A DNA stretch of 55,952 nucleotides from Methanobacteriota archaeon (GCA_043799545.1 JAZDNO010000025.1:1-55952); one strand, 5' to 3'. Counted from the first letter of the stretch, positions 1 to 29,776 are shown. Made by a program: numbers and translations. Notes: generated from the letters alone by a model not told the origin.

Positions 1-3000
1 TTTGTCCGGCGCCATCAGGTTCGCGTCTATCATCGCGCTCGTCAGGTACGTCTGCCCGCCGTCGTACTGCTCGACGCTCTGGACAGTCGTGCCTGAGACA
101 TCACCCTTGAACATGGCGACCGTGTAGCCCGCATCGTCAGACGGGAAGCCAACGAGGTTCCAGCCAGCCTTCAGGGATATCGCGGTCGAGACGGGCTTGC
201 TGTACCCGGCTCCGCCCACGCATATCTGGCCGTCGCCAACCACCGTGACGTAGAGCCATACGCCCATCTTCGTGTCGACTGCCGTCAGGTCGTTCAAGGC
301 CGAGTTCCAGGTTGTGTAGTACTGCTTCCACGGGTCGGTCAACGAGTTCGGATTGTACCACATCGCGCGGGTCCACTGGACCAAGCCAAGGCCGCCGTTC
401 GCAAGGTCTGTCAAAGCGCCCGGCATGGTTGTCGGTCCGGAGATGTTCACTGATACGAGGTTCCATCCGACGTGGTCTGCGGTTATGTTCTGCCAGACCG
501 TGCTCGTCGGTGAGCTGAGGTATGGCTGGACGTTTGACTGCGTGTCCTTGTAGTCGAAGTGCGCGCTCACGGTGCCAGATGGCGTATATGTGATGGCCAC
601 GTTCAGGTAGTCGACGCTGGACCCGCCCCTGGCACCGCTGTTGTAGACTCCCCAGAGGATTACGCCTCCAGAGATGTAGTCGGCCCAATTGGAGGCGATT
701 GCCCTTGTCATCGTCTGTTCCACGTTGGCGGCGAAGGCTGTCGTTGCTCCTACGGCGTCCCAACTAGACGCGACGGCGTTCCAGGCATACATCGTGCCAG
801 TTCCGGCAACGGTGAACGAACCCTCGAAGGTCAGCGAAATGCCGGATATGACTGCCGGGTTGACCGCAGTCACGAACGAGCACTTCACGAAGGTCTCGTC
901 TCCCACCGGCGGGTTGGCACTCGGGCCCGCCCTGATATCGTTGGATGTCGACGCTGCGGTGTAGTATGCGTCCGTGAACTCTGTGGCACTGTTGGGCGTT
1001 GTCAGCTCAGAGCCTGCGTTGCTGTCGACCACGGTGAACCACACGTCGTGCGGCCCGCCTGCGGCCGTCGTGCCAGCTGTCGTCAGAGATTCGGCGTTCG
1101 GCACTGAGGTCACGTGAACCCATAGTTCGACGATGATCCCCTGGCCGTCTGGTATCGTGCCCGCGAGCGTGTCAGTCCAGGTGAACAGGTGCGGTGCGCT
1201 GGTGAAGTCGAAGACATCCTCCGTGTCGTATATCGTGGTGTCGAGCGTGGTCCCTCCCGAACCCTTGACGATTGCATAGAGCACTCCGTCGCCGAGGTTC
1301 TTCGAAGCCGAACCGTAAACGTTGAAGGTCCATGAACCGCCGATGTTCCTGCCGGTGTAGGTGCTCGTCGTCCTCCAAGTGCCGATTAGCGATTCCCCTG
1401 CAGCCGTTATCGAGGCCGTGGACTTCACGTTGGGCGTCAGCTCCACAGGCATCATGTTGAGATCGTAGCTGCCGGAGACTGTTTCGACCTGCATGAACCA
1501 ACGGTCGTCAATTGTGTTGTCCACGGAGAAGATGTAGTTGGACACGTCCTCTCCCATCAACGGGTAGCTGTCAGTCACCCTCACCCTAACGAGATAGTTG
1601 ACGCCGTCTGCAACGGATGCGGTGTTCCACGTGCAGGCTCCATCGTTGTTGTTGAGCGCGCTCTCGATTACTGTCCATGTCGAGCCGCCGTTGGCGCTGT
1701 ATTCGATTGTGCAGTCAAGCGTGTTGGCCGCATCTGTGTAGTCCGTGGCTGTCCATGTTATCACGTAGTTGCCGCTTATCACGGTCTCTGGCGTGTTGGG
1801 CGCGGTGACGAACACGCTTGGTCCGCCTTCGTTTATCTGGAAGGTGAACTGCTCGTATCCGCCCCAGTTACCCGCGGCGTCGCGAGCGTGGACGAACACT
1901 ATGTGCGAGCCCTGAGCGATGTTGGCCACGTATGTTCCGGTGACGTCCTCCAGCGGCGTGTTGAATCCTGTGTCCGCAGTGAAGTCTACCCCTGCATCGT
2001 TGGCGCCTGTCGCGTCAATGAAGTATTCGGCCTGCGCAATGTTGGAGTTGCCCTTCGAGCGGTCGTCGGCCTGCGCCTTGAAGGTGATTGTGTTGCCCTG
2101 GCCGCCCGGCAAGGGGTCCACCTTGATGCTGCCAGCCACTATGACGGGGCCTGTCTTGTCCCCGGCCACTCCGTTGTTCACAGTAAAGTTCGCATCAGAG
2201 GTGTCGAAGGCCTTCAGTGTGGTTCCCTGCGCCAGGATTTTTACCCTGTAGCTTTCGCCGTTGGGGTACACTGGGATGCCTGCTGCGGTTCTGGCTGTGT
2301 TCCACGGATAGGAGGTCGCCGTTCCGGCGAGGCCGGAGGCTTCAACGACATAGGATTGGCCCCCGTCCTTGCTTATCTGCACCTGCTGGCTGACGGCGTT
2401 GGCCACGGTCCAGGAAATGGTCTGTGTTCCCGCCCAGTTCTGGCCGCCGTTCGGGGTGGTCAAGCTGACATCCGGGTGGTCCTCGCCCATCAGCCACTGG
2501 ATGGTGCTGTCTGCAATCCACGCCCTGTCGACATCCATATCGGTGCCGAAGATGTGCCCGGCTGTTCCGAACGTGCCGTCGTCCTGTATCATGGCGTGTG
2601 CGAAGGCCTCGTATGCGAGCTTGTAGTCTGCGCCGGTGTATGCGATAGAGCCCGTGTTGCCGCCGGCCGCATTGATTGAATACGCCCAGCCAGACGGGTT
2701 TTCGGCTCCGGTTCCGCGCGTTATGTCGTCGGGCCAGAACCTTGCCGTTCCGTAGATGTCCTGCTCGAGGTCCTGGGGCGAACCGGTGAAAGCCGTGCTG
2801 ATGGCGTGGGTTGTCGCGACTATGTGGAATCCGCCTGTGGCCAGCTCGTTGCCAGTTGTGCCGGTGTTGTCCGCGGAGTCCCCGTTAAACGTCGCGTGCA
2901 TGTAGGTCTGGAACCAGGTTGGATCCGGCGGGCTTCCCGCATAATTGTACATATCCCAGCCGATGTCCTGTCCTGTAGCGTAGAACTTCTGAACCCCCGC

Positions 3001-6000: not shown

Positions 6001-6207
6001 ACCCATCCTCGAGTCGAACGCATTCTGCCCGAGCATTATCATCCGGTTGCCCTTGTAATAGGTGTTGGACGGCGCCCTGAGGGGCTCCGAGTTCGTTTCG
6101 GTCCGGGTTCCCCATGCGACGAATGCTCCCGCTGAAAGGACCATCGCCACAACAAGCGCTATTACAAGCCCCTGGCTCACAATCTTTTTCCTGTTTTCTT
6201 TGCCCAA
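1..6207 (-). CDS. Large secreted S8 (subtilisin, KP-43-like) serine peptidase with C-terminal Ig/FN3-like domains; 3' end lies beyond the window
   Basis: Not in the ORF track because there is no stop inside the window. The frame with codons ending at positions divisible by 3 was open wherever I translated it (1-60, ~3000, much of 1500-6207). TTG start at 6207 after GGAGG; signal peptide (LVIALVVAMVLSAGAFVAW). Motifs: VAVADTGL (Asp 5326-5328), GHGSHVTG (His 5164-5166), FSNGN (oxyanion), QGTSMSSP (Ser 4504-4506), NDLDL..GN...NPVE C-domain, WNLVGFP near the left edge. Confidence 0.9.
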   Translation of the reverse strand, partial: MGKENRKKIVSQGLVIALVVAMVLSAGAFVAWGTRTETNSEPLRAPSNTYYKGNRMIMLGQNAFDSRMGLTGVPETMKIASYDQRVKGYYLVQFNDVVDEMWVAQIKAAGGKVGAYVPVNAYMVKMSADTKAVVEAMPSVQYVGIYQPAFKIQGSLLNGAELKSGMICGDALNFINWENLYQQAKSLALGSDNVQVTIMLQDGENPHNVAAMIQKAGGKVLGVSESSNSVRAEVSHDGIRALAYVNNVQYVLPYFPSEVMLADTAWTEQTKVSGSTPVWTAGLHGEGVVVAVADTGLNTDHDHFRQTGYTPSDWTGSSPTHRKVLGYHQLGDNKVDYIGGNPSIGSGHGSHVTGIAVGNGAYVGSVAADRYGMAYEAKVSFCDIGMSDDGSTTNDRTLGGIPQDLKTMYALQKGDGASLASNSWGVSCTYDSDGDTNDDSRTFSEGTYSEDSLNSDWYMWTNKEFQIFFSNGNDREALLFGGPAYNTTTTPPATGKNVVSVGSHRAGANWQQTSVFSSYGATNDGRLKPDISATGDGLTDWSGMNSALADSTRDGVADTTYQLMQGTSMSSPATLGDSALISQYYREGWAITGTKVAGNGFVPSNAIIKATLINGAKDATTGTYTNVHPYSLNGHSMAYPNMDQGWGMVDTSDTLYFSGDAREVWSDDNKAGLIKGQEREYKVSVAAGTPLEITMVYTDFPGTTATSGHLVNDLDLTVVGPTGSIYYGNNYGATSRESDPTNPAGYDHLNPVECALITAPTAGVYTIRVYAQSVPKGPQPFALVIAANFDDGYGWVKTDKMVYKPGDTMTIEVQDTNAASASVTLTSSTGDIETKALALAATGRWTTTMAVNALTPVSGNGAISIEDDGTISVRYADASPAHNSYANVTTLMSSPKITNVRVTDISNTAGIVQWDTDVPATSQVFYGLTGALGSTSALDADMVLTHEVPITGLTGFTNYYFDVQSVSIGGVTTRDTNGGDHYMFTTIDNPDVLIIQEHSDIASSDQQVDDWRLSLGYYGWSFTVWETIKYGLPTLGAMNSAKVVYWDVGEGYPQFGLTERALIQSWLNQAGVQKFYATGQDIGWDMYNYAGSPPDPTWFQTYMHATFNGDSADNTGTTGNELATGGFHIVATTHAISTAFTGSPQDLEQDIYGTARFWPDDITRGTGAENPSGWAYSINAAGGNTGSIAYTGADYKLAYEAFAHAMIQDDGTFGTAGHIFGTDMDVDRAWIADSTIQWLMGEDHPDVSLTTPNGGQNWAGTQTISWTVANAVSQQVQISKDGGQSYVVEASGLAGTATSYPWNTARTAAGIPVYPNGESYRVKILAQGTTLKAFDTSDANFTVNNGVAGDKTGPVIVAGSIKVDPLPGGQGNTITFKAQADDRSKGNSNIAQAEYFIDATGANDAGVDFTADTGFNTPLEDVTGTYVANIAQGSHIVFVHARDAAGNWGGYEQFTFQINEGGPSVFVTAPNTPETVISGNYVITWTATDYTDAANTLDCTIEYSANGGSTWTVIESALNNNDGACTWNTASVADGVNYLVRVRVTDSYPLMGEDVSNYIFSVDNTIDDRWFMQVETVSGSYDLNMMPVELTPNVKSTASITAAGESLIGTWRTTSTYTGRNIGGSWTFNVYGSASKNLGDGVLYAIVKGSGGTTLDTTIYDTEDVFDFTSAPHLFTWTDTLAGTIPDGQGIIVELWVHVTSVPNAESLTTAGTTAAGGPHDVWFTVVDSNAGSELTTPNSATEFTDAYYTAASTSNDIRAGPSANPPVGDETFVKCSFVTAVNPAVISGISLTFEGSFTVAGTGTMYAWNAVASSWDAVGATTAFAANVEQTMTRAIASNWADYISGGVILWGVYNSGARGGSSVDYLNVAITYTPSGTVSAHFDYKDTQSNVQPYLSSPTSTVWQNITADHVGWNLVSVNISGPTTMPGALTDLANGGLGLVQWTRAMWYNPNSLTDPWKQYYTTWNSALNDLTAVDTKMGVWLYVTVVGDGQICVGGAGYSKPVSTAISLKAGWNLVGFPSDDAGYTVAMFKGDVSGTTVQSVEQYDGGQTYLTSAMIDANLMAPDK

Positions 6208-6478
6208 AGAATTTGCCTCCCATTCTATTGTAAAGCGTTTTAGCATGGGACACGAGGTCCCATACAATGCTATTCACTTATAAAGTCGCTCTTATTTATA
6301 TTTATCGGAGTAATTTACAACGCATCGGTCATTTTTCGATTTATATATCTCCAGGATTTCGCTTTGCGAATTGAGCGACGGGTCAAATTGATGGATAAAT
6401 TATCATAAGTGTTATATATGGTGTTTCGCCTTGCCCATAGTGCATGCCGCAGAAGGCGTGAATATTGGAGGCTTTGAA
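6208..6478. promoter_or_regulatory. Divergent promoter region between the two S8-family genes
   Basis: AT-rich with TATA-like boxes (ttataaag ~6279, tatttatattta ~6295, ttatatat ~6412) and the perfect palindrome TGGGAC-N5-GTCCCA at 6246-6262. Confidence 0.6.
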
Positions 6479-9400
6479 ATGGCCAGATTGTCCGTTGGGA
6501 TTATGAGCGCATGGATGGCTTTGCTCGTGGTGTTGTCGGGGATATCCGGAATAGCCACGACTTGGGGGGGCGGAGATGGCGCATTCGGTCCGCACGTCGA
6601 CACCGAGTGGCAGACCGGTCATTCTTCCATAGACGACGCTCTGGGCGAGCCAACTGGCGCGGCGGGGGAAACGTTCCAGAAAATGACGCGCGTGGTCGTT
6701 GTCACCACCGATGTTGGGGAACTCACCAGCTTCCTATCGAAATATAAATACGAAGGCTTGATTGGCTCGAAGACAAGCTCGAGGAAGGGCGTCGCCTTCC
6801 CGATACTCACTCTGCCGAAGGAGATTATCTCCGACCTTGAAAGCAAGCCTTATATACTCGGCGTCTACCCGTATTCCGAGGGCACCGAAACCGGCATCAA
6901 GTCAGCCGAGCGAGCGGACGCGGCGGGGGAGCCGACAGACGATTCGCTTAGCGCCGGCCAGATGGACGAAATCATGAGGTTCCTGGGCGCGCCTTATTAC
7001 CAGGGAGCGGAAGACGCGTGGGCACTGGGATATTCCGGAGACGGAGTCAACGTTGCAGTCGTGACTGGCGGGGTCGATTTCGGGCACGAGGACCTGATGG
7101 GCAGGTACGCAACCTCCGGCAGCGGCGATTACGCGGGCTGGCCGATAGCCTTCGACGGCTCGTCGCTCAGCGCATACATCGCAGACGGGCCGCAATCCGG
7201 AACGGAAACGCCCAACGGCGACAGCTGGTACGTCAACACAAGCTCCACGGACATGAGGATACTCCATACGGTCATCGTCGACGGCACGAACGATTTCTGG
7301 GTTGAGATGAACACGCACAAGACTGCGAACCAGACATACGACCTGAACGAGACGACCGAGGTCAGGGGGAGGGACCCCACGAACGATGTGAGCCCGAGTG
7401 AGTTCGACCTTGGCAGCTCTTATGTGGCCCAGGACGCGAACAAGTGGTTCCTCGGTTTCGATGTAACCAAGTCGTCCGAATTGGCACCTCGCGTGAAAAA
7501 CGTCCGTTACGGAATCTACATTGACACGGATGGCGGAGCCTCAACGTCGGGGGCGACGATCGACCCCATGGGTAACAAGGTGGAGACAAACAGCACGAAC
7601 AGGCCAGAGTACGCAATCTACATGACTCACTACGGCGAATACTGGGGGGTCAAGGGGACCATAGTCAGATGGGTGAAGGGCGCGGGCGGCGACTGGGGCA
7701 CGTACCAGACGAACGTGGACTGGGGCGTCGACGGGAACACTGGCAAGTGGAACAGAAACAACACGTTCAGGATAGACAGCACCGGAGTCACCATCGACTA
7801 CTGGGAGGTTCAGAGCGACCTCCAGGTGTGGAGCAAGAACGACACTGTCTTGAAGTCGTCGGTCAGGGTGTTCGGGTGGAACGGGACGGCGTGGAACTAC
7901 ACGTCGCTGCTGACTGACACAGTCAACAAGACCGGTTTCAAGGGTGAGTTCACCATGAAAAGCGGTTTCGTAGAGATGTCCATACCGAGGGCCTCGCTAC
8001 GGAACGCGAACACCTTGTCGATGGCCGTAATGTCTTTCGGGCTGAACGTATCCAGGCCGCAGGATTCGATACCCAAGGAATTTCCCAAAGTCTTCAACGC
8101 CACGCCGGACTGGGGCAAGGCCATCGTCACCCTTACGAACTACACGGTCGTGGGCGTCCCGCATTCCTACGTTACCGCGGGCATTCCCTCTGCCGGGGGC
8201 AAGATGCGCATAGGACTGCACCCCGACCAGAATCTCATAACATATCATTATGGAAGACCTGTCGCAGTGCTCCTGACGGACAGCCTAGTTGCGAACGTCT
8301 ACGATTCGGTTTACGTCGATTTGGACAACGATAAGAACTTCTCTGACGAGCGCCCGATGCAGAGGTACGGGGCGTACAACGCCGCCCTCATGATAGGTCC
8401 GCAGTGGGGCACGGTGCGCTACTCCAACAACACTTTACTGCACAACAACACCTGGTATGATATTAAAAACGTCGTGACCGAAGTGCTCTGGTCGAACGAG
8501 ACGCTTAAGCAGAGCGCGGTCGGCGGCGAAACGGTATTCTACGTTGGCAACGAGTCCGCGAACGCAGCGACCCTCGTCGTCAACAGGCCCGCGAGCCACG
8601 CCGTCAAATTTGACAACTCTTCAGTTTACACATGTGACGGAACGGAGACCGCACCATTCGACTTCCCGCTGGGAAACAGCGATATAGTCGAAGTCGGCAA
8701 CATCTCGATGGAGATACCGTCCACCGAACCGAACGCTGGCTGGTACAATCTGAACTACTCGCATTTCAGCATAAACAACGCCACGGGCGTGGCGACGTTC
8801 AAGGGGCACCCGAGTCTTGTAAACGACTGGAACAACCAGTCGTCTGGCCCGGTATACACGCACAACATACCGATAAACGGAACGGATACGGTGAATTTCT
8901 ACCTTCCATACTCGCCCGTCGTTTCCTGGTTGTTGCTGGAGGACGGGTCATCGACCCTCGCATGCTACGAGGAGACGGTGTTGGGAGGGTGGTTCCCCTT
9001 GGATTACAGCAACGGGGACTTCACGATAGACAACGCGACTGGCCTGGTATCGATATCCCCCTTCGACGATGGCGAACCCGGGGAGCTCGTACCCGCTGGA
9101 ATGGTGGTTTACATGAATTTCAGCTATTCTGTCGATCCGGTTTCGGGGACAGAGTTCTCTGCTGACTACAGGTATACGCAGCCAGTCAACCCCGCGTACA
9201 CATTCGACCCCATCACGCGCAAGCTGGAGCTCGCCGAAGGGCTTGTGGCGGGGGACACGTTGTCAGTCATGTATTCTTACAACGTGGTGAACCCGGCTGC
9301 TGCGTCGGACCGGTACGGTTTAATCTACTACAACGGACAAAACAGGACGGTGGAGCTCAGAGAATGGGCTGCGAGCAAGGACATCGACGCCGATGGCGGC

Positions 9401-12400
9401 AAAGGGGACGGCAAGGCCTTCCCGGACCTGTCTGGGGGCATGGCATACTTCATATCGAGGGCGTCGGAGGTGTCCAATGAGGCGCTGACGTTGCTTGAGA
9501 ACGGCACATATGCGATTCTTGGCCATACGAACATTGTAAACAACTCATGGACAGTTCGTGTCAACAGCTCGGTCTACGGCCTCGACAAGGTCAAGGTAAA
9601 CACCGAAACTGGCCGTATGGACTTCTCCCCGGCGCTCTGGCCGACGTCGACAGTCTTCGTGGATTACGATTACGACGGCCTGGCGATACCATATTCCCAG
9701 GCGTATTGCGAAAGGAACGGTGGAATAGACAACGTCATCCCAGCAAACGGCGACATGGTCGCCCTCACCGGGAGCTTCGACCTTGATTATTCCCAGGGCA
9801 CAGAGATTGCGACGGCCATAGTCGGTGGCGGCGTCAGCGTCGACGGCAACGGGGAGAGCCTTTTGAAGGGCATGGCCCCGAATGCACGGCTCATAAGCAT
9901 CAGGGCGGATCCGTTTTCCGCCTGGTATTTCGCGGTCGAGGGTTACGACGGGAACGTCACCACCATCAACGATCAGGCGCAGATCGTAGCGATAACGTCG
10001 GTGTACGGACTCAACGGCGACGGATTCGATATATACTCCCGGGCTGTGGACTACATCAGCACAGTCTACGCCGCAGGGCGCACTGTCTTCCTTGCGGGGA
10101 CGGGCGACGCCGGCCATGGGTACGGCACGATAAACTCGCCAGCATCCTCACCAGGGGTCATCTCCGTCGGGCAGGGAACGAACTTCGCGTACAGGAACTA
10201 CAAGCCCAAGGCGCCCGACTCGTTGGCGCGCGCCTACGCGGACGGCGGCCCGAACGCGAGGCAAGGCAACGTCCTGCCCAGCTCCGGCCGCGGGCCGAGC
10301 ATGCTCGGATACCCGGAACCGGATGTGATATCAACAGGAGCGTTCCTATTTGTCGGAACGCCCTTGAACGGAGACCAGGATGCCACGTCGCCGATGGACC
10401 TCCAGTGGGAGGGTGGCCAGTGGGCGTGGGACCTCGTGAGCGGTTCTTGGCTGGCCGGATCGACGGCCGTCGGCGCGACTGCGCTGGTCATGCAGGCTTA
10501 CAAGGAGGCTCACGGCACGTTCCCGACCATCTCGATGGTCCGCAGGATACTCGCTTCGTCTGCGGACAACCTCAACTACGACCCGCTGTCTCAGGGCGCG
10601 GGGATGGTCAACGCGCTGCGCGGGGTGAAGATGGCATCGGACAAAGACGGAATACTCATGGATACTACTTTCTGGACGCCCGGCGAATACCGCGGCACGA
10701 CATACGACGCTTTCGTGCACCTCATGAAACCAGGGCAGAACGCCACCAAGAATGTCAACCTGACGAACGTGAACCCAACACTGGCCTCGAACGTTAAAGT
10801 CTACGATGCGGTTTTCATGAAGTTCGACTCTTTGGACTTCGACATCAACATCACGAAGAACTACGACGACGACCGAGTGCCCGGATTGATCAACATCGAA
10901 CCGCTCGTCCCGAGAGGGACCGAGCTGCTGAGGGCCTCCGTGTTTTCCCACGCTTCCGCCTCGGGGATGAAGAGCTACATGGCCGAGTTCTTCGACTGGA
11001 CCGACACCAACGACAACGGCAAAATGGATTTCACAGGCGAGCAGAACAGGGTGACTTACAGCATCGGCACCAACGCGATGGAGATAAGGCTCCGCGACCC
11101 GCTGGGCGCCTACCATGACGGAATCGGCCTTCAGATAAAGGATTTCGGCGGGGACGGCACGGTCCTGAACGATTGGCATGTGCAACTGGCATTCTACACC
11201 CAGGTCGACTGGAGCTGGCTCAGCCTGCAGAGCACGCCATCATCCATCGATGCGGGCAAGTACGATATCTACGGCATGACTCTTGCGGTTCCGGCAGGAA
11301 CCCCGATGGGCTCGTACGAAGGCGCGGTGTACACGATCGAGCAGATGCCCACGGAAAACGATATCGCGGTCGGCGTGGGCACATACGTCAAAAGCGACAG
11401 TTTCTGGGATGTAAGCGAGGGCATACCGAACCCGGACGAACGCTACGGTACCTGGTTCACGCCCAGGTATGCGCGCGTCGACAACCTTACGGTGCGCGGG
11501 GGCGAAGTTTCGATAGTCGAGGGAAGCACAACGGTGTACTGGAACGGTTCCGCTCTCAACGAGGGAACGGACTATTCGATTGCCCCTGGTGGCGAGATTA
11601 TGTTCTTCTACGACATCCCGCTTGGAGCCCAGCCATTCTTCAATATCAGCTACCTGGTCCTGGAAATCGATCCGGCCACGGGCAATACGATTGAAAACCC
11701 CGCAACGTCCGCGAAATTGAACATGGGAAACCTGAAAAAGGGCAACTACACGGTCTACAAGAACGGGGCGGAATTCCAGGAGAACAATCCAGTCAGCGAG
11801 GTCGTGATGACCTCACTCGGAGGGGAGACCAAGGTCAACCTGGACTATGGAGGTGTGACCAGGCAGTCGGCGACCGTTTTCCTGAACGGAACTGCGATGC
11901 CGCAGGAAGGTGGGAGCGTTGTGGACGAGGCGGTAGTATCGCCTGCCTTAGGCGGGGAAACGTACGCGAACCTCTCCAGGGGCGCGCTCGTGCCGGGGTC
12001 GGCCACGATAGTCAAGAACGGCGACGTGCTGCCGCAGACCGATGAAATATCGATGTACGACAAGGAGCAGGTTGTTGGATTGAAGGCGACGGTGACCACG
12101 GTGACGGACGAGGCGCTGGCGCTGGGAGCGCCCAACATGGCCAAGAGCATATGGTACGAAAGCGGTTCATGGTATGGGCTGCTAAATATCAACTCATACT
12201 ATGCAGATAATTACAAGATTATCTCATACAACATGTACGCCAACGGAGTGTCTCTCACGGACGGAGTCAACGTCACGATGAACATCGCGAACGGGACGGG
12301 CGTGACGATTTACGGCCTGTTCAGGTTGAACCCCGTCGGCCTCGATCCGTTCAACGACACGTTCAAGGTAACATACAAATACTACGACATGACGCTGAAG

Positions 12401-15400
12401 GGCGGTTTCCTTGAGCACAGGAACATCGTGCCAGAGAGCTATTCGATATACCTCTCGGGCGCAGAGATGAAGACCGGGACGTTCCAGCTCAACCTGGATA
12501 CTGGCGCCCTAAACCTTAGCGATGCGCTCGGGCCCGAGGATTATATCGAGGCCGTTTACAAGTACATCACATACACCCTCGACGCGAAGACTGGAGTCCT
12601 CGAGCTGTCAGACGCGCTGGAAGCTGGCGATACGATTGATGTGAGCTACGAGTACCAGAACTACACGGTCGACCTCGTCCGGGGAATAATCTACTTCTCA
12701 ACCCCGCTCAAATATAATGTGAATGTTTCTGTGGACTACTCGTACGTGCAGTACACGGTGGACGCAATCGAGGGGATTATCAAATTCTCAAAGCCTCTGA
12801 TGCCTGGCGAATCCGTTTCTTGCGGGTATTGGCACTACCTTAACGTCCTTCCAATCCTCGTCAACATCGGCGTTGACGGACCCAACTTTAACATAGGCGG
12901 CGGAGGCGAGACCGGGCTGCTCTTCGGACCGAACGAGGTCACAAGCGGTTTCGGCTCCGGGGAGGGCGACCGGAGGTTCTACTACTTCGACGTTCTGGAG
13001 CAGGGCTACATGGAGACTACCAACCCCAACTACAAGCTCTTCACGGAGCTGAAGTGGGACAACAACCTCACGGACGTCAACGTCCAGGTGTTCGGCGGCC
13101 GGCAGAGCCTGCAGGAAATTCCTGGCATGGGCAGCGACACCTTCTCCAGCGCGCGGTACGGCCCGCACGGCATTTCCCGGGTTGGCACGAGCGACGAGAC
13201 CGCCGGGTTCTTCACGACCACCAACGGGCCGGGCGAAACCATCGCCCTGCCGTACTCCTCGGGCCTCAACGTGCTGGCATTAAACACGGTTGGGTTGAGC
13301 GGCGATGCCCCTACGGAGTTGTTCACCGGGACTGTCGGCACCATGTACATCGACCAGCCCGCCGTGTCGGTCGAGACGAACAAGCTCATCGGCGGCACGA
13401 GCCTTTACATGCATTCCAGCGTACCATGGGACGGTATCGGAGGTTTCGCCTCCGGTCCCTCCGCGCCCAAGGAATACAGGAACATGACTGTCACGCAGGA
13501 CGACCCGAACTGGGCTAACTACGTCAGCTTCGAGGAGCAGCTGTCCTCCGGGGGCACGACGGTCGCCGTGGAATTGAAGGACTGCCTGATATTCCAGGTC
13601 CATCTCATGGGGCAGGTCGATTTCGGTTACAAGGATGTGGTCGACCTTGACCTGGGGATATTCCTGGACGGTTCCAACGACCAGCCGAAGGATGGCAAAA
13701 CGCAGGTCGAGGAGTTCGTTGCCATGGACGCGGACGGGGATGCGGACGAAACTGTCAAACTCATCAAGCCCGTGGACGGAACGTACCTTATCAGGCCGTT
13801 CGGCTTCACCCTGAAGCTGGACCCGGCTCACTTCGACCTCGACATCACGATTGTCCAGGGCAAGGGCTTTGCGGTGAGCGGGGGCATGACCGATGTCATC
13901 CCAGCGTTCACGCCGACTGACATCGGACTTTCTTGGGTGCTGCCCGGCGACACGAAGGAAGGGAAGCTCCTGGGAGCCATGTACATGGGACCTGCGGACG
14001 CGCAGATGTGCCTCCTGGTTCCGATAGAGATAGAGTACGACGTGACCCCGCCGTCTGTGTCCGGCATAACCCCGGCCGACGGAACATACACCACCGACAG
14101 GACGCCATTGATATCAACTTCATTCATCGATCCAATCCTCGGGAAGATAGATCCAGATTCCATTGACCTGAAGATTGACGGGGAAAGCATGCGAGCCTCG
14201 GCGATCATCAACGCCAATTACGGAGCGATGTCGTCCGATGTTTCTACGCTGGGTTACTGGACGGCTACAATCAGCCTGACGCCCCAGGTGGATCTGCCTG
14301 ATGGCGGGCACAGCATACAGGTTTCGGTCTCGGACAAAGCCGGCAATGTCGAGACTGTGGACTGGGTTATCACCGTGGACACGCAGGCTCCAGAACTGCA
14401 AATAGCGAGCCCTCCCAGCGACATATACGTCAGCGACCTCGGCGGCGTAACAGTCAACGGTTCCGCAACGCCTGGAAGCGACATCTTGGCTTTCAACGGC
14501 GCGAACGAGGTTAAGACGAGCCTGGACGCGAACGGAGAGTTCGGATTCGCGGTCACGGACCTGGTCGACGGCGCGAATGAAATCAAGGTCAGGGCGACGG
14601 ATGCCGCTGGCAACATGGTTGAAGTTGTAAGGCGGATATACTTGGACACGACGACGCCCCGGATAATTTCAATAGCCAGCGAGAGTGGCTCCCTTACAAA
14701 CCGCCCCAGCACTAGGTTCACCGGGAAGGTGGACAAGGCCGGGCAGATGGCATTGAACGGAATCCCGATAGCGGTATTCCCCGACGGCACGTTCGAGCAC
14801 ATCGCGCTGCTGACAGAAGGAGTGAACGTCTTCGAGTTCCAGTTCACGGACCTCGCGGGAACTGTCGTCAAAGCCTGGAAGAACGTGACCAAGGACACCA
14901 TCGCTCCGGAGATATGGATAACCGAATCGCAGGCGCGATCGACCAACGGCACGTACGTGCTGGCCGGGACAACAGATGCAGATTCGTCGGTCGGGGTGAA
15001 CGGGAAGCCGGTCGTCCTCGACGCGGACGGTGGCTTCGTCAAGAACATCGATCTCAGCTACGGAATCAACACAATCGTTGTCACGAGCAAGGACACCGCG
15101 GGCAACATCGCAGAGAACCGTGTGATTGTGTATTACGACATCGGACCGGGTTTGGACTTGGGTGGAATGCTGTGCATCACGGTAATCGCGATGTGGTTCG
15201 TAGTCTGGTTGCTGGTCGGGATATGGGTGTACAAGGATGCCCGCAGCAGGGGAATGAGCGGAGCCTTATGGATGCTCATCGTGCTGTTCCTCGGGCTTCT
15301 CGGCATCATCTTGTACATGATAATACGGAAGAAACACCCGAAAATCCCGCAGGAGCCTCCGGTAACGCCGCCGGAAGCGGATGCGCAATCTCCAGAGGCT

Positions 15401-15715
15401 AGCCCGGAACCCGTCGAGCAGGAAGTTGCCGGACCGAGCGAGGGCGAGCTTCTGCCCATGCCGCCAGTAGTCGAAGAACCGGCGGTACCCGAGGCCCCGC
15501 TGGACGAACCGATGCCCGAAGCTCCAACCGCAGAGCCGGCTGCCCTGGAACCCGAGGCCCCCAAGCCCGCCGAACCCATCGCCGCGACCGAGCCCATCGA
15601 GGAAATGGACCCGCTGAAGGCAGAGCGCATCGCGAAGCTCGACAAGGCCCTGGCAGACGGTAAGATATCGAAGGAGCTGTACGAGAAGAACATGGCGCGC
15701 ATCAAGAGCCAGTAA
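6479..15715 (+). CDS. Giant (~3078 aa) membrane-anchored pyrolysin-like S8-fold protein, predicted catalytically inactive
   Basis: ORF track gives 6431..15715; ATG 6479 follows GGAGG and begins a signal peptide. S8 scaffold motifs are recognisable (G.GVNVAV..GVDFGHEDL, GTINSPASSPGVISVG, SSGRGP, PDV...G, QGAGMVNA) but the catalytic positions are substituted. C-terminal Ig-like repeats, hydrophobic helices, Pro/Glu-rich linker, SHOCT-like end. Many N-x-S/T sequons. Confidence 0.9.
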   Translation: MARLSVGIMSAWMALLVVLSGISGIATTWGGGDGAFGPHVDTEWQTGHSSIDDALGEPTGAAGETFQKMTRVVVVTTDVGELTSFLSKYKYEGLIGSKTSSRKGVAFPILTLPKEIISDLESKPYILGVYPYSEGTETGIKSAERADAAGEPTDDSLSAGQMDEIMRFLGAPYYQGAEDAWALGYSGDGVNVAVVTGGVDFGHEDLMGRYATSGSGDYAGWPIAFDGSSLSAYIADGPQSGTETPNGDSWYVNTSSTDMRILHTVIVDGTNDFWVEMNTHKTANQTYDLNETTEVRGRDPTNDVSPSEFDLGSSYVAQDANKWFLGFDVTKSSELAPRVKNVRYGIYIDTDGGASTSGATIDPMGNKVETNSTNRPEYAIYMTHYGEYWGVKGTIVRWVKGAGGDWGTYQTNVDWGVDGNTGKWNRNNTFRIDSTGVTIDYWEVQSDLQVWSKNDTVLKSSVRVFGWNGTAWNYTSLLTDTVNKTGFKGEFTMKSGFVEMSIPRASLRNANTLSMAVMSFGLNVSRPQDSIPKEFPKVFNATPDWGKAIVTLTNYTVVGVPHSYVTAGIPSAGGKMRIGLHPDQNLITYHYGRPVAVLLTDSLVANVYDSVYVDLDNDKNFSDERPMQRYGAYNAALMIGPQWGTVRYSNNTLLHNNTWYDIKNVVTEVLWSNETLKQSAVGGETVFYVGNESANAATLVVNRPASHAVKFDNSSVYTCDGTETAPFDFPLGNSDIVEVGNISMEIPSTEPNAGWYNLNYSHFSINNATGVATFKGHPSLVNDWNNQSSGPVYTHNIPINGTDTVNFYLPYSPVVSWLLLEDGSSTLACYEETVLGGWFPLDYSNGDFTIDNATGLVSISPFDDGEPGELVPAGMVVYMNFSYSVDPVSGTEFSADYRYTQPVNPAYTFDPITRKLELAEGLVAGDTLSVMYSYNVVNPAAASDRYGLIYYNGQNRTVELREWAASKDIDADGGKGDGKAFPDLSGGMAYFISRASEVSNEALTLLENGTYAILGHTNIVNNSWTVRVNSSVYGLDKVKVNTETGRMDFSPALWPTSTVFVDYDYDGLAIPYSQAYCERNGGIDNVIPANGDMVALTGSFDLDYSQGTEIATAIVGGGVSVDGNGESLLKGMAPNARLISIRADPFSAWYFAVEGYDGNVTTINDQAQIVAITSVYGLNGDGFDIYSRAVDYISTVYAAGRTVFLAGTGDAGHGYGTINSPASSPGVISVGQGTNFAYRNYKPKAPDSLARAYADGGPNARQGNVLPSSGRGPSMLGYPEPDVISTGAFLFVGTPLNGDQDATSPMDLQWEGGQWAWDLVSGSWLAGSTAVGATALVMQAYKEAHGTFPTISMVRRILASSADNLNYDPLSQGAGMVNALRGVKMASDKDGILMDTTFWTPGEYRGTTYDAFVHLMKPGQNATKNVNLTNVNPTLASNVKVYDAVFMKFDSLDFDINITKNYDDDRVPGLINIEPLVPRGTELLRASVFSHASASGMKSYMAEFFDWTDTNDNGKMDFTGEQNRVTYSIGTNAMEIRLRDPLGAYHDGIGLQIKDFGGDGTVLNDWHVQLAFYTQVDWSWLSLQSTPSSIDAGKYDIYGMTLAVPAGTPMGSYEGAVYTIEQMPTENDIAVGVGTYVKSDSFWDVSEGIPNPDERYGTWFTPRYARVDNLTVRGGEVSIVEGSTTVYWNGSALNEGTDYSIAPGGEIMFFYDIPLGAQPFFNISYLVLEIDPATGNTIENPATSAKLNMGNLKKGNYTVYKNGAEFQENNPVSEVVMTSLGGETKVNLDYGGVTRQSATVFLNGTAMPQEGGSVVDEAVVSPALGGETYANLSRGALVPGSATIVKNGDVLPQTDEISMYDKEQVVGLKATVTTVTDEALALGAPNMAKSIWYESGSWYGLLNINSYYADNYKIISYNMYANGVSLTDGVNVTMNIANGTGVTIYGLFRLNPVGLDPFNDTFKVTYKYYDMTLKGGFLEHRNIVPESYSIYLSGAEMKTGTFQLNLDTGALNLSDALGPEDYIEAVYKYITYTLDAKTGVLELSDALEAGDTIDVSYEYQNYTVDLVRGIIYFSTPLKYNVNVSVDYSYVQYTVDAIEGIIKFSKPLMPGESVSCGYWHYLNVLPILVNIGVDGPNFNIGGGGETGLLFGPNEVTSGFGSGEGDRRFYYFDVLEQGYMETTNPNYKLFTELKWDNNLTDVNVQVFGGRQSLQEIPGMGSDTFSSARYGPHGISRVGTSDETAGFFTTTNGPGETIALPYSSGLNVLALNTVGLSGDAPTELFTGTVGTMYIDQPAVSVETNKLIGGTSLYMHSSVPWDGIGGFASGPSAPKEYRNMTVTQDDPNWANYVSFEEQLSSGGTTVAVELKDCLIFQVHLMGQVDFGYKDVVDLDLGIFLDGSNDQPKDGKTQVEEFVAMDADGDADETVKLIKPVDGTYLIRPFGFTLKLDPAHFDLDITIVQGKGFAVSGGMTDVIPAFTPTDIGLSWVLPGDTKEGKLLGAMYMGPADAQMCLLVPIEIEYDVTPPSVSGITPADGTYTTDRTPLISTSFIDPILGKIDPDSIDLKIDGESMRASAIINANYGAMSSDVSTLGYWTATISLTPQVDLPDGGHSIQVSVSDKAGNVETVDWVITVDTQAPELQIASPPSDIYVSDLGGVTVNGSATPGSDILAFNGANEVKTSLDANGEFGFAVTDLVDGANEIKVRATDAAGNMVEVVRRIYLDTTTPRIISIASESGSLTNRPSTRFTGKVDKAGQMALNGIPIAVFPDGTFEHIALLTEGVNVFEFQFTDLAGTVVKAWKNVTKDTIAPEIWITESQARSTNGTYVLAGTTDADSSVGVNGKPVVLDADGGFVKNIDLSYGINTIVVTSKDTAGNIAENRVIVYYDIGPGLDLGGMLCITVIAMWFVVWLLVGIWVYKDARSRGMSGALWMLIVLFLGLLGIILYMIIRKKHPKIPQEPPVTPPEADAQSPEASPEPVEQEVAGPSEGELLPMPPVVEEPAVPEAPLDEPMPEAPTAEPAALEPEAPKPAEPIAATEPIEEMDPLKAERIAKLDKALADGKISKELYEKNMARIKSQ

Positions 15716-26753: not shown

Positions 26754-29609
26754 TTATAGTTTCCTGCGCTTCCTGAAGGCTCCGAAGAGTATGGCCGCAG
26801 TCCCGATGGCTGCCAGGCTCGCAAACGCTCCGATTCCAGGGAGACCGAGGAAACCGTTGTCGGGCTTCACCCCTCCGTATCGGGTCACCGCAACGTTGGC
26901 TGTCCCCGAGTCCGGCTGGTAGGAAATTTTGGTAACTGATGCCACGATTCTGAACGTCGTGTCCACAGTCACATTCGCTGTCCGCAGCGTGACCTCGAAA
27001 GCCCCGCTGGTATCCGTCGTGCCTATGCCGTCCACTATCCATCCGCCAGCACCAGCTGGCTCCACGGTTACGACGACGTCGGCTCCAGAAACCGCCAGCC
27101 CAGTCGCTTCATCAGTCACGAGAACGGACACAATGGTCTCGTTGCCGGACTTCATGCTGCTAACTGCAGGAGTTACTTCTATGGTAAACAGATTGGACAC
27201 CGTGTGGACAGTGATTGTTGTATTGGTGTATCCCGCGACGTAACCGCTTATCGCCGCCATCGTGGATATTGAGGCTGAGATTGTGCTGGTTATCGTTGGT
27301 GCCGTGTATGTTGCAGAGTACGTCCCATCGCCGTTGTCCGTCATTGTGCTTAATGTGCCAGAATCCACCGAGATGATTATGGTTGCACCGGGTATCGGAT
27401 TGGATTCCGAATCCGTGACAGTTATATCGATGGGGAGCGTGCCAGCGGACTCAACGTATCCTGGATAGGCAGATGCAGATACTACAAGCGATTTCAGAGT
27501 TCCACCATCGTAAAGATTGTTCTTCAAACTGGTCATGGACCAGTAGTTATACAGCCCACCGAGCATTGAAACCCAGCCGACGTAGCGCTCCTTGCTGTAG
27601 GCGTTGAGTACCATGTAACTCAGGATTGGGGCGTACGGAACCTGTTCGGAGAGGAAACCCTGCGCCTCCTTGGAATGGTTTGCCAGCATTCCCTGGTCGA
27701 GTGTCAGCGACATCTTGTCCATCGCATCGTCGACCCCTCTGTAATCGAAAGTCATCGTCAATTTGTCCGTCGTCGAGTTGAAGTTCGCCACGACAGACAA
27801 TTTTCCAGTTTTATAGTTTAGATTTTCATAAGTCTTGTAAGTGTATGTCGCGTTGATGACGTCGCCCACGACCATGGCGGCTGCGGTTAGTATCGTGACG
27901 TTGCCGGTGGTGGGGTTGAGCGTGTAATGGGTGCCATCTGTCATCTCGGCGTCATTTTTATATATTTTATATGTTAGGATGGACGTGTTTCCCAGGCTCG
28001 CAATGCTCTGCGTACCGTTGTAGACCATAATTGTCTGGTTTACAGCCTTGCCCCAGACGACTCCGTTTTTGTAGACGGAAACCGCCACGTTCGGGTCCAG
28101 ATTTGTTCGCGATATCGTTCCGATGTTCGTCTCGGAATCCACCTCGATCGTCCCGTTGATTTGGGTTGTGGTCCCATTGAAGTTCATGTAATTCGTGCCC
28201 GTGGCGATGTTTGTGGAGTAGAACATGGTCTTCAAAAACATCGGGGAAATCTCTCCTCGCTTCTCGACGCCCAGATAGATATCGAAATCATCCGACGCGA
28301 TGATTGCGTCCATTCCCGCCATGGGTTTGTTGTCGAGTGTCAGGTTGAGGCCTATCGCTTCGATGGAGGTCTCCAAAATCTGGTCGCCGATGGTTCCCAG
28401 CGTCAAACTCTCATCTATCGTTGGCAACAGAAGCCTCAGGGAGAACGAACCGCCTTTGGTGAACGTTTTGGTGGTTTTGTTCCATACGCTTCCGGCTTTA
28501 TCCCTCCACCCATCGCCGTTCAGGTCGAAATAGCCCGCCAGGTCCAGGATGGCATTTGCCTCGGTCAGGTCGAAATCAAGCTTCGATATGGATGCGTTAT
28601 ACCACGGCGTGTTCCTCGAGCTCATTATGGAGTTAGTCGATTTGGCACTGCCAGACACATCCAGATTTGAGATGGAAGCCTTGTCTATGCAATAGGCTAT
28701 TGCCTTCCTAAGCGGCAACTCGTGAAGGAGGCTCGTGTCCTTGCAGTTGAATCCAAGATATAGGAACTCTGTTCCGAACGAGCGAGCAACGGTCGTGTTG
28801 TTGTATGTCAGGAGGTTCGTGTTCTGCCCGCTGAAGTTGATATTCTGGCTCGCCTGGGTGACGTCGAGGTTCCAGCCAAGGAAGTTAACAGTGTTGTTCA
28901 AAAGAGCCTTAGCCGCAGTCTCGAAATCCGTGTAATACGTGTATGTGATGCTGTCGAGGTACGGGCGGCCAACGAAGTGGTCGTCGAAGGCATTTATCGT
29001 GAGCGAAACGTTGCCAACACTCGAACCGTACATATAAGGCCCGCATCCCATAGGCGCGCTCGTGTTGGTGAATCCGTCAGGGACGAGCTTTAGGAGCAGC
29101 CCGTCGACGAGGAACGTGCCGTTTGGCTGGTCCAGTGTGAATGTAACGGTCTTCGCGCTGGCGTCCTTTGTCACGTTGACGATGCAATCAGGGGCGTAGC
29201 CCGCGATATTGTACGTGTACACAACGTCATCCAATGTGACTTCTTCTCCGTCGTGCCACAGGACGTTTTCCTTCAGGGCGACCGTGACGTTGACTCCGTC
29301 CACGGTCCAAGAGCTGGCCACCCAAGGCTCCAGAGCCAGAGTTGCGGGGTCGCGCCTTGCCAGCGAATCGTATACGAGGTCGATTATCTTCAAGGTCTCG
29401 CTGTCGGTGCTCGCCAATGGGTTCAGTGCTCCGGGCTCAGATTGCAGGGCAATCTTGAAACCGCCGCCGTACATGCCGCCTATCGGTGCCGCCTTCGCCT
29501 CGGGCACGACGGCCATGAACGGGGCCAGCATGCCCAAGAATAGGGCTGCCACGATTGTCACCACAAAGACGGTCTTTCTCAAACGGACGTCTATCATCTT
29601 GGTCGCCAT
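26754..29609 (-). CDS. Family-5 (peptide/nickel) ABC solute-binding protein with inserted nested module, Ig-like domains and a PGF-CTERM-like anchor
   Basis: EPGALNPL, VYDSLA, PWVASSW, LKENVLWHDGEEVTLDDVVYT, LRKAIAYCIDK; DNGDGTYSATYTAP Ig-like domain; C-terminal LPGIG + TM + RKRRKL. Likely start ATG 29609 (ORF track: 29651). Confidence 0.88.
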   Translation of the reverse strand: MATKMIDVRLRKTVFVVTIVAALFLGMLAPFMAVVPEAKAAPIGGMYGGGFKIALQSEPGALNPLASTDSETLKIIDLVYDSLARRDPATLALEPWVASSWTVDGVNVTVALKENVLWHDGEEVTLDDVVYTYNIAGYAPDCIVNVTKDASAKTVTFTLDQPNGTFLVDGLLLKLVPDGFTNTSAPMGCGPYMYGSSVGNVSLTINAFDDHFVGRPYLDSITYTYYTDFETAAKALLNNTVNFLGWNLDVTQASQNINFSGQNTNLLTYNNTTVARSFGTEFLYLGFNCKDTSLLHELPLRKAIAYCIDKASISNLDVSGSAKSTNSIMSSRNTPWYNASISKLDFDLTEANAILDLAGYFDLNGDGWRDKAGSVWNKTTKTFTKGGSFSLRLLLPTIDESLTLGTIGDQILETSIEAIGLNLTLDNKPMAGMDAIIASDDFDIYLGVEKRGEISPMFLKTMFYSTNIATGTNYMNFNGTTTQINGTIEVDSETNIGTISRTNLDPNVAVSVYKNGVVWGKAVNQTIMVYNGTQSIASLGNTSILTYKIYKNDAEMTDGTHYTLNPTTGNVTILTAAAMVVGDVINATYTYKTYENLNYKTGKLSVVANFNSTTDKLTMTFDYRGVDDAMDKMSLTLDQGMLANHSKEAQGFLSEQVPYAPILSYMVLNAYSKERYVGWVSMLGGLYNYWSMTSLKNNLYDGGTLKSLVVSASAYPGYVESAGTLPIDITVTDSESNPIPGATIIISVDSGTLSTMTDNGDGTYSATYTAPTITSTISASISTMAAISGYVAGYTNTTITVHTVSNLFTIEVTPAVSSMKSGNETIVSVLVTDEATGLAVSGADVVVTVEPAGAGGWIVDGIGTTDTSGAFEVTLRTANVTVDTTFRIVASVTKISYQPDSGTANVAVTRYGGVKPDNGFLGLPGIGAFASLAAIGTAAILFGAFRKRRKL

Positions 29610-29776
29610 CCTATATACCCCCCGAAGCGCCATGAGCATCACGACCCACATCGCTAGCGAACGTGCGCTAAGGTAGATGGGCTCAGGAAATGCCCCCTCT
29701 ATATATATACGTTTCGCACCCTACTATGAAAGACCAGCCGAGACCGCGCGTTGATAGCAAATGCTTTTAAGCGAAA

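Follow-up and report, generated by a model that had tools for sequence, protein, structure and literature searches.

A probable recursively nested array of phage-type beta-sandwich units, predicted to form a hairpin arm, in an archaeal surface protein

Introduction

Nested insertion of like domains and hairpin arms built from equal runs of two motifs are both established, the former from the Si3 insertion of cyanobacterial RNA polymerase beta' and the latter from the P-domain of calnexin and calreticulin. Gram-positive pilus tip adhesins such as RrgA also contain nested domains, an outer stalk presenting an inner binding domain; these adhesins are made of CnaB and vWA folds with one or two nesting levels, not of repeated copies of one unit. 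In Si3, segments far apart in the chain come together to form several of the sandwich-barrel hybrid motif (SBHM) domains (PMC10895346), with up to six nesting levels (PMC13114784). The calnexin/calreticulin P-domain is a hairpin arm of the form 11112222, in which each motif 1 pairs head-to-tail with a motif 2 (PMC9913998). Here we describe a surface protein of 3094 residues encoded in a 55,952-nucleotide stretch of DNA from a Methanobacteriota archaeon (JAZDNO010000025.1:1-55952, hereafter the window), in which residues ~1755-2136 would form a recursively nested array of ~70-residue, seven-stranded beta-sandwich units folded into a hairpin arm, a reading to which we assign a probability of about 0.82. 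The unit itself has its homologue in the outer subdomain of the distal tail proteins of phages and gene transfer agents (GTAs).

As in Si3, copies of one small beta domain would be nested into an elongated appendage with both ends at the base, host and insert come from one domain family, and the outer domains are assembled (here by prediction) from two distant segments. Si3, however, belongs to the SBHM family, is cytoplasmic and irregular in order, whereas the arrays described here are regular runs of N- and C-terminal half-domains (N^n C^n) that recur in many hosts; Foldseek rows bearing on the SBHM fold were weak (8emb_D, E 0.017; 9dvs_F, E 0.006; TM ~0.1). With the calnexin P-domain the arrays share equal runs of two motifs pairing in a hairpin, as judged here from balanced motif words and from pairing in a model. 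The calnexin motifs are proline-rich small sheets of 14-17 residues, in contrast to the 42- and 30-residue halves of a ~70-residue globular domain found here, and there is neither a sequence nor a fold relationship between the two; a calreticulin-family match was absent from the Pfam results on the host protein. Structural resemblance to pilins amounted to generic domain matches at Z about 5 in both of our models. In the solved distal tail proteins the subdomain is single and contiguous, whereas here it is predicted to be nested and comes without profile positions 1-90. The present arrays differ from the known systems in the use of the distal-tail subdomain family, the regular and branching N^n C^n arrays, the extracellular and mostly archaeal or viral setting, and the recurrence in unrelated hosts; in a library of papers searched for nested or recursive domain insertion beyond Si3, and for the Pfam family DUF2460, nothing was found on such an architecture.

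Results and discussion

Half-motifs in the host protein

A reading of the DNA made from the letters alone (the sequence-only reading) had proposed that window positions 11717-12840 encode three N-half motifs, two complete units and three C-half motifs, nested within one another as a stalk. All the motifs it quoted were found in frame by translation of the open reading frame (ORF) 6431-15715(+), and the layout of residues 1755-2136 is indeed three N-halves, a core and three C-halves; a regular-expression scan placed the N-halves at residues 1763, 1804 and 1848, a contiguous N+C unit at 1994/2018 and the C-halves at 2048, 2078 and 2108. Hidden Markov models (HMMs) of the two halves were trained on 108 N and 118 C segments, all from outside the window protein and its orthologues. 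The N model matched host residues 1755-1781, 1790-1823, 1840-1865 and 1994-2012 (9.6-18.4 bits), and the C model matched residues 2019-2045, 2048-2075, 2078-2105 and 2108-2128 (5.6-19.6 bits). Among 200 shuffles of the host protein there were 0 matches of at least 5 bits, the maxima being 3.4 and 2.8 bits, which confirms that the half-motifs are real and beyond chance.

The features on which the argument rests are listed below. Residue numbers in the host ORF are (nt-6431)/3+1, which makes 11717-12840 residues 1763-2136, and 1669 is added to a residue of the AlphaFold2 (AF2) model to give the host residue; pLDDT is the predicted local distance difference test and VIA denotes the limits of VIA-align structural matches, in model residues. 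D1 to D5 are the proposed layers from the outermost inward.

6431..15715, + strand: host ORF, surface protein of 3094 residues (ORF list, translation)
11468..11665, + strand: U0, contiguous complete unit directly before the array, residues ~1680-1745 (unit profile match 11507-11605; AF2 pLDDT <50)
11693..11782, + strand: N1, N-half assigned to the outermost layer D1, residues ~1755-1784 (N HMM 9.8 bits; pLDDT 52-81)
11783..11908, + strand: N2, predicted N-half of D2, residues 1785-1826 (N HMM 18.4 bits; VIA start 117/118)
11909..12037, + strand: N3, predicted N-half of D3, residues 1827-1869 (N HMM 9.6 bits; VIA start 158/159)
12038..12088, + strand: predicted first strand(s) of D4, residues 1870-1886, with the tip domain lying between these and the other strands of D4 (VIA 202..374-377)
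12089..12397, + strand: D5, ~100-residue tip domain and predicted innermost layer, residues 1887-1989 (VIA 218..319/320; block pLDDT mostly 73-93)
12398..12568, + strand: rest of D4, the second "complete unit", residues 1990-2046 (profile match 12383-12571, E 2.7e-20; N HMM 14.2 and C HMM 5.6 bits)
12569..12661, + strand: C1, C-half predicted to close D3, residues 2047-2077 (C HMM 15.9 bits; VIA end 405-410)
12662..12751, + strand: C2, C-half predicted to close D2, residues 2078-2107 (C HMM 19.6 bits; VIA end 435-437; Pfam DUF2460)
12752..12838, + strand: C3, C-half expected to close D1, residues 2108-2136 (C HMM 7.5 bits; pLDDT 52-63)

When a 72-position whole-unit profile (A5) was run against the source genome, N2 was matched via positions 4-39 only, and C1 and C2 via positions 42-71 only. 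Each of the three matches one half of the unit profile, and they are therefore halves of one domain; the proposal that an N-half plus a C-half makes a single domain holds on this ground and also because contiguous units match DUF2460 (see below). For the halves, then, existence, homology to one domain and a balance of N and C counts across families can all be demonstrated.

Predicted pairing of the layers

An AF2 model of residues 1670-2145 was built from an 8-row alignment of orthologues at 30-55% identity. Layer pairing was worked out from where each VIA-align match begins and ends, how many residues it aligns and its root-mean-square deviation (rmsd), not from contacts or predicted aligned error (PAE): where a compact solved domain of ~65-100 residues superposes at low rmsd over a range that is hundreds of residues long, the domain in the model must be discontinuous. 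Mean pLDDT was 76, and the means of 10-residue blocks were 73-94, mostly >85, across model residues 111-440, with low confidence in U0 and in the last ~35 residues.

The model range 159..407 matched 8hqo_R (Z 8.6, rmsd 1.8 A, 67 aligned) and comprises N3 with its 42 residues and the first C-half with its 30, while 117/118..435-437, which comprises N2 and the middle C-half, matched eight PDB entries (Z 4.5-5.8, 62-68 aligned). A third range, 202..374-377, had 62-73 residues aligned (73 with 8gtc_G), though its contiguous part, 321-377, is only 57 residues long; because of this shortfall we take D4 to draw its first strand or strands from model residues 201-217. D4 would then be split around 218-320, and the ~100-residue first "unit" would therefore lie inserted inside D4, giving five layers. 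This tip domain, range 218..319/320, matched pilin or CnaB-like domains and phage baseplate domains (Z 4.5-5.6, 77-83 aligned). The three discontinuous ranges (159..407, 117..436 and 202..377) each had about 65 residues aligned at rmsd 1.8-2.6 A, and the same solved-domain families matched inner and outer layers, both in this model and in a second one described below. A Foldseek search of the host model against the PDB returned nothing at E <= 0.001.

The pairing foreseen from the sequence, in which N1 would join the last C-half, N2 the middle one and N3 the first, is reproduced for N3 with the first C-half and for N2 with the middle C-half; N1 with the last C-half is weakly modelled (pLDDT ~50-65). 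The folding of adjacent N-halves or adjacent C-halves as independent tandem domains was looked for in the model and not seen. The two "complete units" fared differently. The second is recognised as N+C by the HMMs, whereas the first (SYNMYANG...YKYY, residues ~1887-1989) was missed by both HMMs and is in the AF2 model a larger domain of ~100 residues. Nor do they stand side by side as had been supposed: the first appears nested inside the second (range 202..377). Overall, structure prediction supports nesting at three of the four layer pairings (D2, D3 and D4/D5) and the rule of balanced counts supports it at all of them, with the D1 pairing of N1 with C3 proposed from balance and topology. 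A complex prediction of the N1 segment (residues 1744-1786) against the C3 segment (residues 2106-2140), using 7-row alignments, gave a score of 0.02 and a mark of 0.32, which speaks neither for nor against the pairing.

An independent four-layer array

The related protein P0012 belongs to another protein family (with beta-propeller repeats) and carries four N-halves followed directly by four C-halves. Its residues 186-480 were modelled with AF2 from a 15-row alignment at pLDDT 88.7 and a predicted template modelling score (pTM) of 0.67. In model numbering, the innermost unit, which is contiguous, spans 131..201 (8gtc_G, Z 9.8, rmsd 1.8 A, 34% identity), the layer around it spans 90/91..230-232 (Z 6.0-7.9, 69-74 aligned) and the layer farthest out spans 1-3..295 (Z 5.1-5.7, 78-80 aligned).

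Secondary structure assigned to this model by DSSP gives four strands to the N-half and three to the C-half, with junctions of 1-2 residues. Two residues separate the fourth strand of an N-half from the first strand of the next N-half, which is 10-11 residues long, and a single residue separates the long final strand of a C-half from the strand that opens the next C-half. Insertion at the beta4/beta5 hairpin predicts this pattern, and it is these strand runs with short junctions that lead us to suggest stiff junctions between layers.

Identity of the unit

In P0012 the contiguous N+C units match DUF2460 (PF09343) with 127 bits over profile positions of about 92-175. In the host protein, residues 1700-2150 score 33.8 bits against a gathering cut-off of 30.4, over profile positions 125-176 only, and the whole protein scores 32.1 bits; here the C-halves alone reach the Pfam model. 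In sequence searches the unit profile matched the distal tail protein of the Rhodobacter GTA, RcGTA (6tba/6teb/6teh, E 1.8e-6, residues 97-177), and the distal tail protein (Dit) of phage R4C (8gtc_G, E 4.7e-4). The folds agree with this assignment: 8gtc_G matched the host model (Z 8.1, rmsd 2.3 A, 73 aligned) and the P0012 model (Z 9.8, rmsd 1.8 A, 71 aligned, 34% identity), and 6tba_2A matched the P0012 model (Z 5.4). Positions 92-175 of DUF2460 make up the outer subdomain of the distal tail protein of GTAs and phages, and the unit is a homologue of this subdomain. In every Pfam hit, profile positions below ~90, which correspond to the N-terminal ring-forming part, were unmatched; the host is a cellular surface protein that shares one subdomain and is not a distal tail protein. 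Annotation pipelines that call only the C-halves, as "DUF2460", misread these arrays. We note that precomputed annotation places Pfam PF27067 on P0012, P0014, P0018, P0041, P0048 and P0054, a family that may already cover the N-half run.

Balance of N and C counts among relatives

The search for (N)n-core-(C)n architectures that had been suggested as a check was made by annotating 62 related proteins with the half-HMMs, and independent proteins proved to be balanced. The majority of the 62 have single or tandem complete units; wherever consecutive N-halves occur in an array, a matching set of C-halves is present, in most cases by HMM calls and in a few after completion by eye. Ten further arrays, in solute-binding proteins, a tail-sheath protein, other surface proteins and a paralogue, are balanced, eight of them on HMM calls and two after completion by eye. 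With N-halves written as opening and C-halves as closing parentheses, the word from HMM calls is ((())) in P0011, in P0027, which carries a phage tail-sheath domain, and in the solute-binding protein P0029, and (((()))) in P0012. P0024 also reads ((())), with an insert of ~300 residues within its second C-half. P0014, a solute-binding protein, reads ((())(((())))) over residues 205-677, a word that is balanced and branched by HMM calls. One outer unit of P0014 appears to host two nested arms side by side, of depths 2 and 4.

Among proteins of the host type, the host itself, P0004 and P0005 give N N N, a gap of ~110 residues, and N C C C C by HMM calls. For P0006 and P0007 the HMM either misses one outer N-half or places it farther upstream, and the alignment gives a host-like layout; P0010 has such a layout from a reading of its sequence. 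The arrangement of three N-halves, core and three C-halves with the tip domain is kept in all orthologues, down to 30-39% identity.

Some proteins appear to depart from balance, however. P0030 and P0050 have one extra N-half 120-340 residues upstream of a complete unit, for which no C-half was detected, and P0036, P0053 and P0062 likewise show an extra N-half in the HMM calls alone. In P0041, P0048 and P0054 the HMM calls give more C-halves than N-halves, which is most simply explained by divergent N-halves that go undetected. P0051 had looked like a further exception; on inspection, one N-half had been split into two HMM matches. As regards the breadth of the family, only 12 relatives of the host arm came out of an exhaustive search of representatives and 2 out of a word-index search, and a query with the N-run added only three archaellins, with two tandem units each and no nesting.

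Nested, tandem or swapped

Several observations weigh against nesting. The sole range that spans D1 (93..452) has an rmsd of 6.4 A, and N1 and C3 are at pLDDT ~50-65. The alignments behind the two models are shallow, at 8 and 15 rows, so that we must consider that AF2 may be completing a fold it recognises, not reading co-variation; most Z-scores lie at 5-9, a band in which the tool warns of a merely common arrangement, and the pairing rests on aligner ranges, without contacts or PAE. A shape search of the ESM Atlas with the four-layer model found no full-length look-alike (TM <=0.35), returning partial matches to phage structural proteins. Finally, when the N-N identities were set against the C-C identities, nested pairing beat parallel pairing in three of five arrays (P0012, P0011 and a sub-array of P0014) and was not favoured in P0027 and P0029.

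The shallow alignments, the contacts not seen directly, the low confidence of N1 and C3 and the middling Z-scores would also suit the alternative that N- and C-halves are two families of short repeats, each folding with its sequence neighbours as tandem beta-hairpin modules or a solenoid, the nested model being an AlphaFold artefact. We consider this improbable: the N and C counts balance in every multi-copy array examined, across unrelated hosts; the innermost N runs directly on into the innermost C, and the two together cannot be told from a stand-alone unit; an N-half matches the N-terminal part of a single domain profile and nothing else of it, as a C-half does the C-terminal part; and two independent AF2 models agree.

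Alternatively, the halves might complement each other between molecules, with the N-run of one chain joining the C-run of another in a domain swap that yields dimers or filaments. A symmetric swap would need equal N and C counts just as nesting does, and the monomer alone was modelled. We nevertheless regard this as the most remote of the alternatives, since the innermost N and C are joined without a linker as a normal unit, which forces a hairpin turn, since the junctions of 1-2 residues favour zipping in cis, and since branched words such as that of P0014 come naturally to nesting in cis.

Proposed architecture and function of the arm

In the nested architecture that we favour, each unit would be opened at its central beta4/beta5 hairpin, which would host the next unit, giving the layout D1(N1..C3) > D2(N2..C2) > D3(N3..C1) > D4 > D5. 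The chain would run out through the four-strand N-halves, form the ~100-residue D5 tip and D4, and return through the three-strand C-halves; linkers would be 1-2 residues long, and the last strand of each half seems to continue directly into the strand that opens the following half. The result would be a hairpin arm that is fairly rigid and starts and ends at its base. Because both chain ends lie at the base, we read it as a side arm, situated between U0 and the next conserved domain and presenting the ~100-residue tip domain, in place of the stalk beneath the protein that the sequence-only reading had envisaged. From the junctions of 1-2 residues, the pTM and the conserved layout, the arm would be stiff, at roughly 3 nm per layer. 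The N-halves would be secreted first, and folding should therefore proceed from the tip as each C-half emerges from the translocon. We further suppose that arrays grow when copies of a unit land in the central hairpin of a unit of the same kind.

Within the arm region (residues 1670-2145, window 11438-12865) there are 12 N-x-S/T sequons in 476 residues, and the arm is on this account likely to be glycosylated, which suggests that the unit doubles as a carrier of N-glycans. Several of these sequons stand at recurring motif positions, NYT ahead of the first strand of the C-half and NGT at a turn of the N-half. The arm may serve as a spacer that carries glycans and keeps the tip domain at a distance from the body of the protein. 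Mean pairwise identity per arm segment is 0.34-0.48 and even along the arm, the tip domain being no more conserved, and P0011, P0012, P0027 and P0029 have no extra tip domain. Because of this even conservation and of these relatives, a role in spacing or decoration stays a live alternative: the array would be nested as we propose but bent or flexible, and would be a decoration that carries glycans or acts as a shield, in keeping with the 12 sequons, instead of a rigid rod with a functional tip. We think this unlikely, though clearly less so than a tandem or swapped arrangement, given the short junctions with long strands, the pTM of 0.67 for a four-layer array, and the layout with its tip that all orthologues retain.

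Surface proteins are usually lengthened by tandem repeats, and nesting seems to do the same job here. Nesting keeps both chain ends at the base and makes such an arm graftable into a loop of any host protein; the hosts that carry it include a subtilase-like protein, solute-binding proteins and a tail sheath. We speculate, as a tentative proposal whose odds we put somewhat short of even, that a self-nesting family of phage-type beta-sandwiches provides rigid, glycan-coated arms, adjustable in length by whole-domain steps and capable of branching (as in P0014), to unrelated extracellular proteins, among them pseudo-subtilases, solute-binding proteins, further surface proteins of archaeal type and a protein with a phage tail-sheath domain, with folding tip-first; if true, this would be a general and evolvable device for setting reach at the surface of a cell or virion. 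Because the arrays read as balanced-parenthesis words of two half-motifs, arms of this kind can be sought in unannotated genomes by a simple rule at the sequence level. The arrays could also be a natural test case for the folding of discontinuous domains during secretion, the inner layers folding before the outer ones close, and could inform the design of protein arms of set length.

The host protein and its genome

The source genome is 2.06 Mb in size and 94% complete, and its small-subunit (SSU) rRNA gave its top score with the archaeal Rfam model (1499 bits). The host protein has a subtilase (S8)-like core (Peptidase_S8, 40.5 bits against a Pfam cut-off of 21.8), Ig-like domains near the C-terminus, and, visible in the sequence, a C-terminal membrane span followed by an acidic, Pro-rich tail; Big_13 and three Glucodextran_B matches were also found by Pfam. 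P0004 is an orthologue at 56% identity.

For the catalytic triad, host residues ~210 and ~1340 were compared with the neighbouring intact subtilase (window 1-6267, minus strand). A Thr of the host (AVVTGG) is aligned under the catalytic Asp (AVADTG) and a Trp (GSWLAG) under the catalytic Ser (GTSMSS), in weak BLASTP alignments at E 0.005 and E 0.17 respectively. By this comparison the host resembles a pseudo-protease, two of its triad positions (Asp and Ser) seeming to be catalytically dead. Orthologues that were read have similar replacements at the triad positions.

The same module elsewhere

A split unit had also been suspected around window positions ~8520-9280. This fits the orthologue alignment, in which P0006 and P0007 have one contiguous unit at the site, and P0004 and P0005 have an inner unit preceded by an N-like segment and followed by a closing C-half; the host protein has still more sequence between the pieces, and its own halves are too divergent for the HMMs. 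Two further arrays lie in the same genome, one of them in the window:

27741..28145, - strand: N-half, complete unit and C-half in P0016, a family-5 solute-binding protein (gene 26754-29651; translation)
Contig 14 of the source genome (L002), 6577-14886, + strand: paralogue of the host, 2770 residues, with its array at ~8497-9147

In the contig 14 paralogue an N N unit C C array stands just ahead of the subtilase-like core, the inner unit being invisible to the HMMs and read by eye, and the host protein has one plain unit at the equivalent site (residues 1026-1081); nesting depth therefore differs between paralogues at a single site. In P0016, whose host domain is SBP_bac_5 (142 bits), the inner unit has a profile match at 27831-28046 (E 6.2e-20), the outer N-half reaches only E 0.16 and the outer C-half was recognised by eye only, so the array appears to read (()).

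The archaellins mentioned above (P0063, P0064 and P0065, from other samples; PF01917; 313-340 residues) carry their two tandem complete units between the N-terminal helix and the C-terminal body. P0014, P0024 and P0029, from other samples, are solute-binding proteins that, like P0016, contain nested arrays, at other sites.

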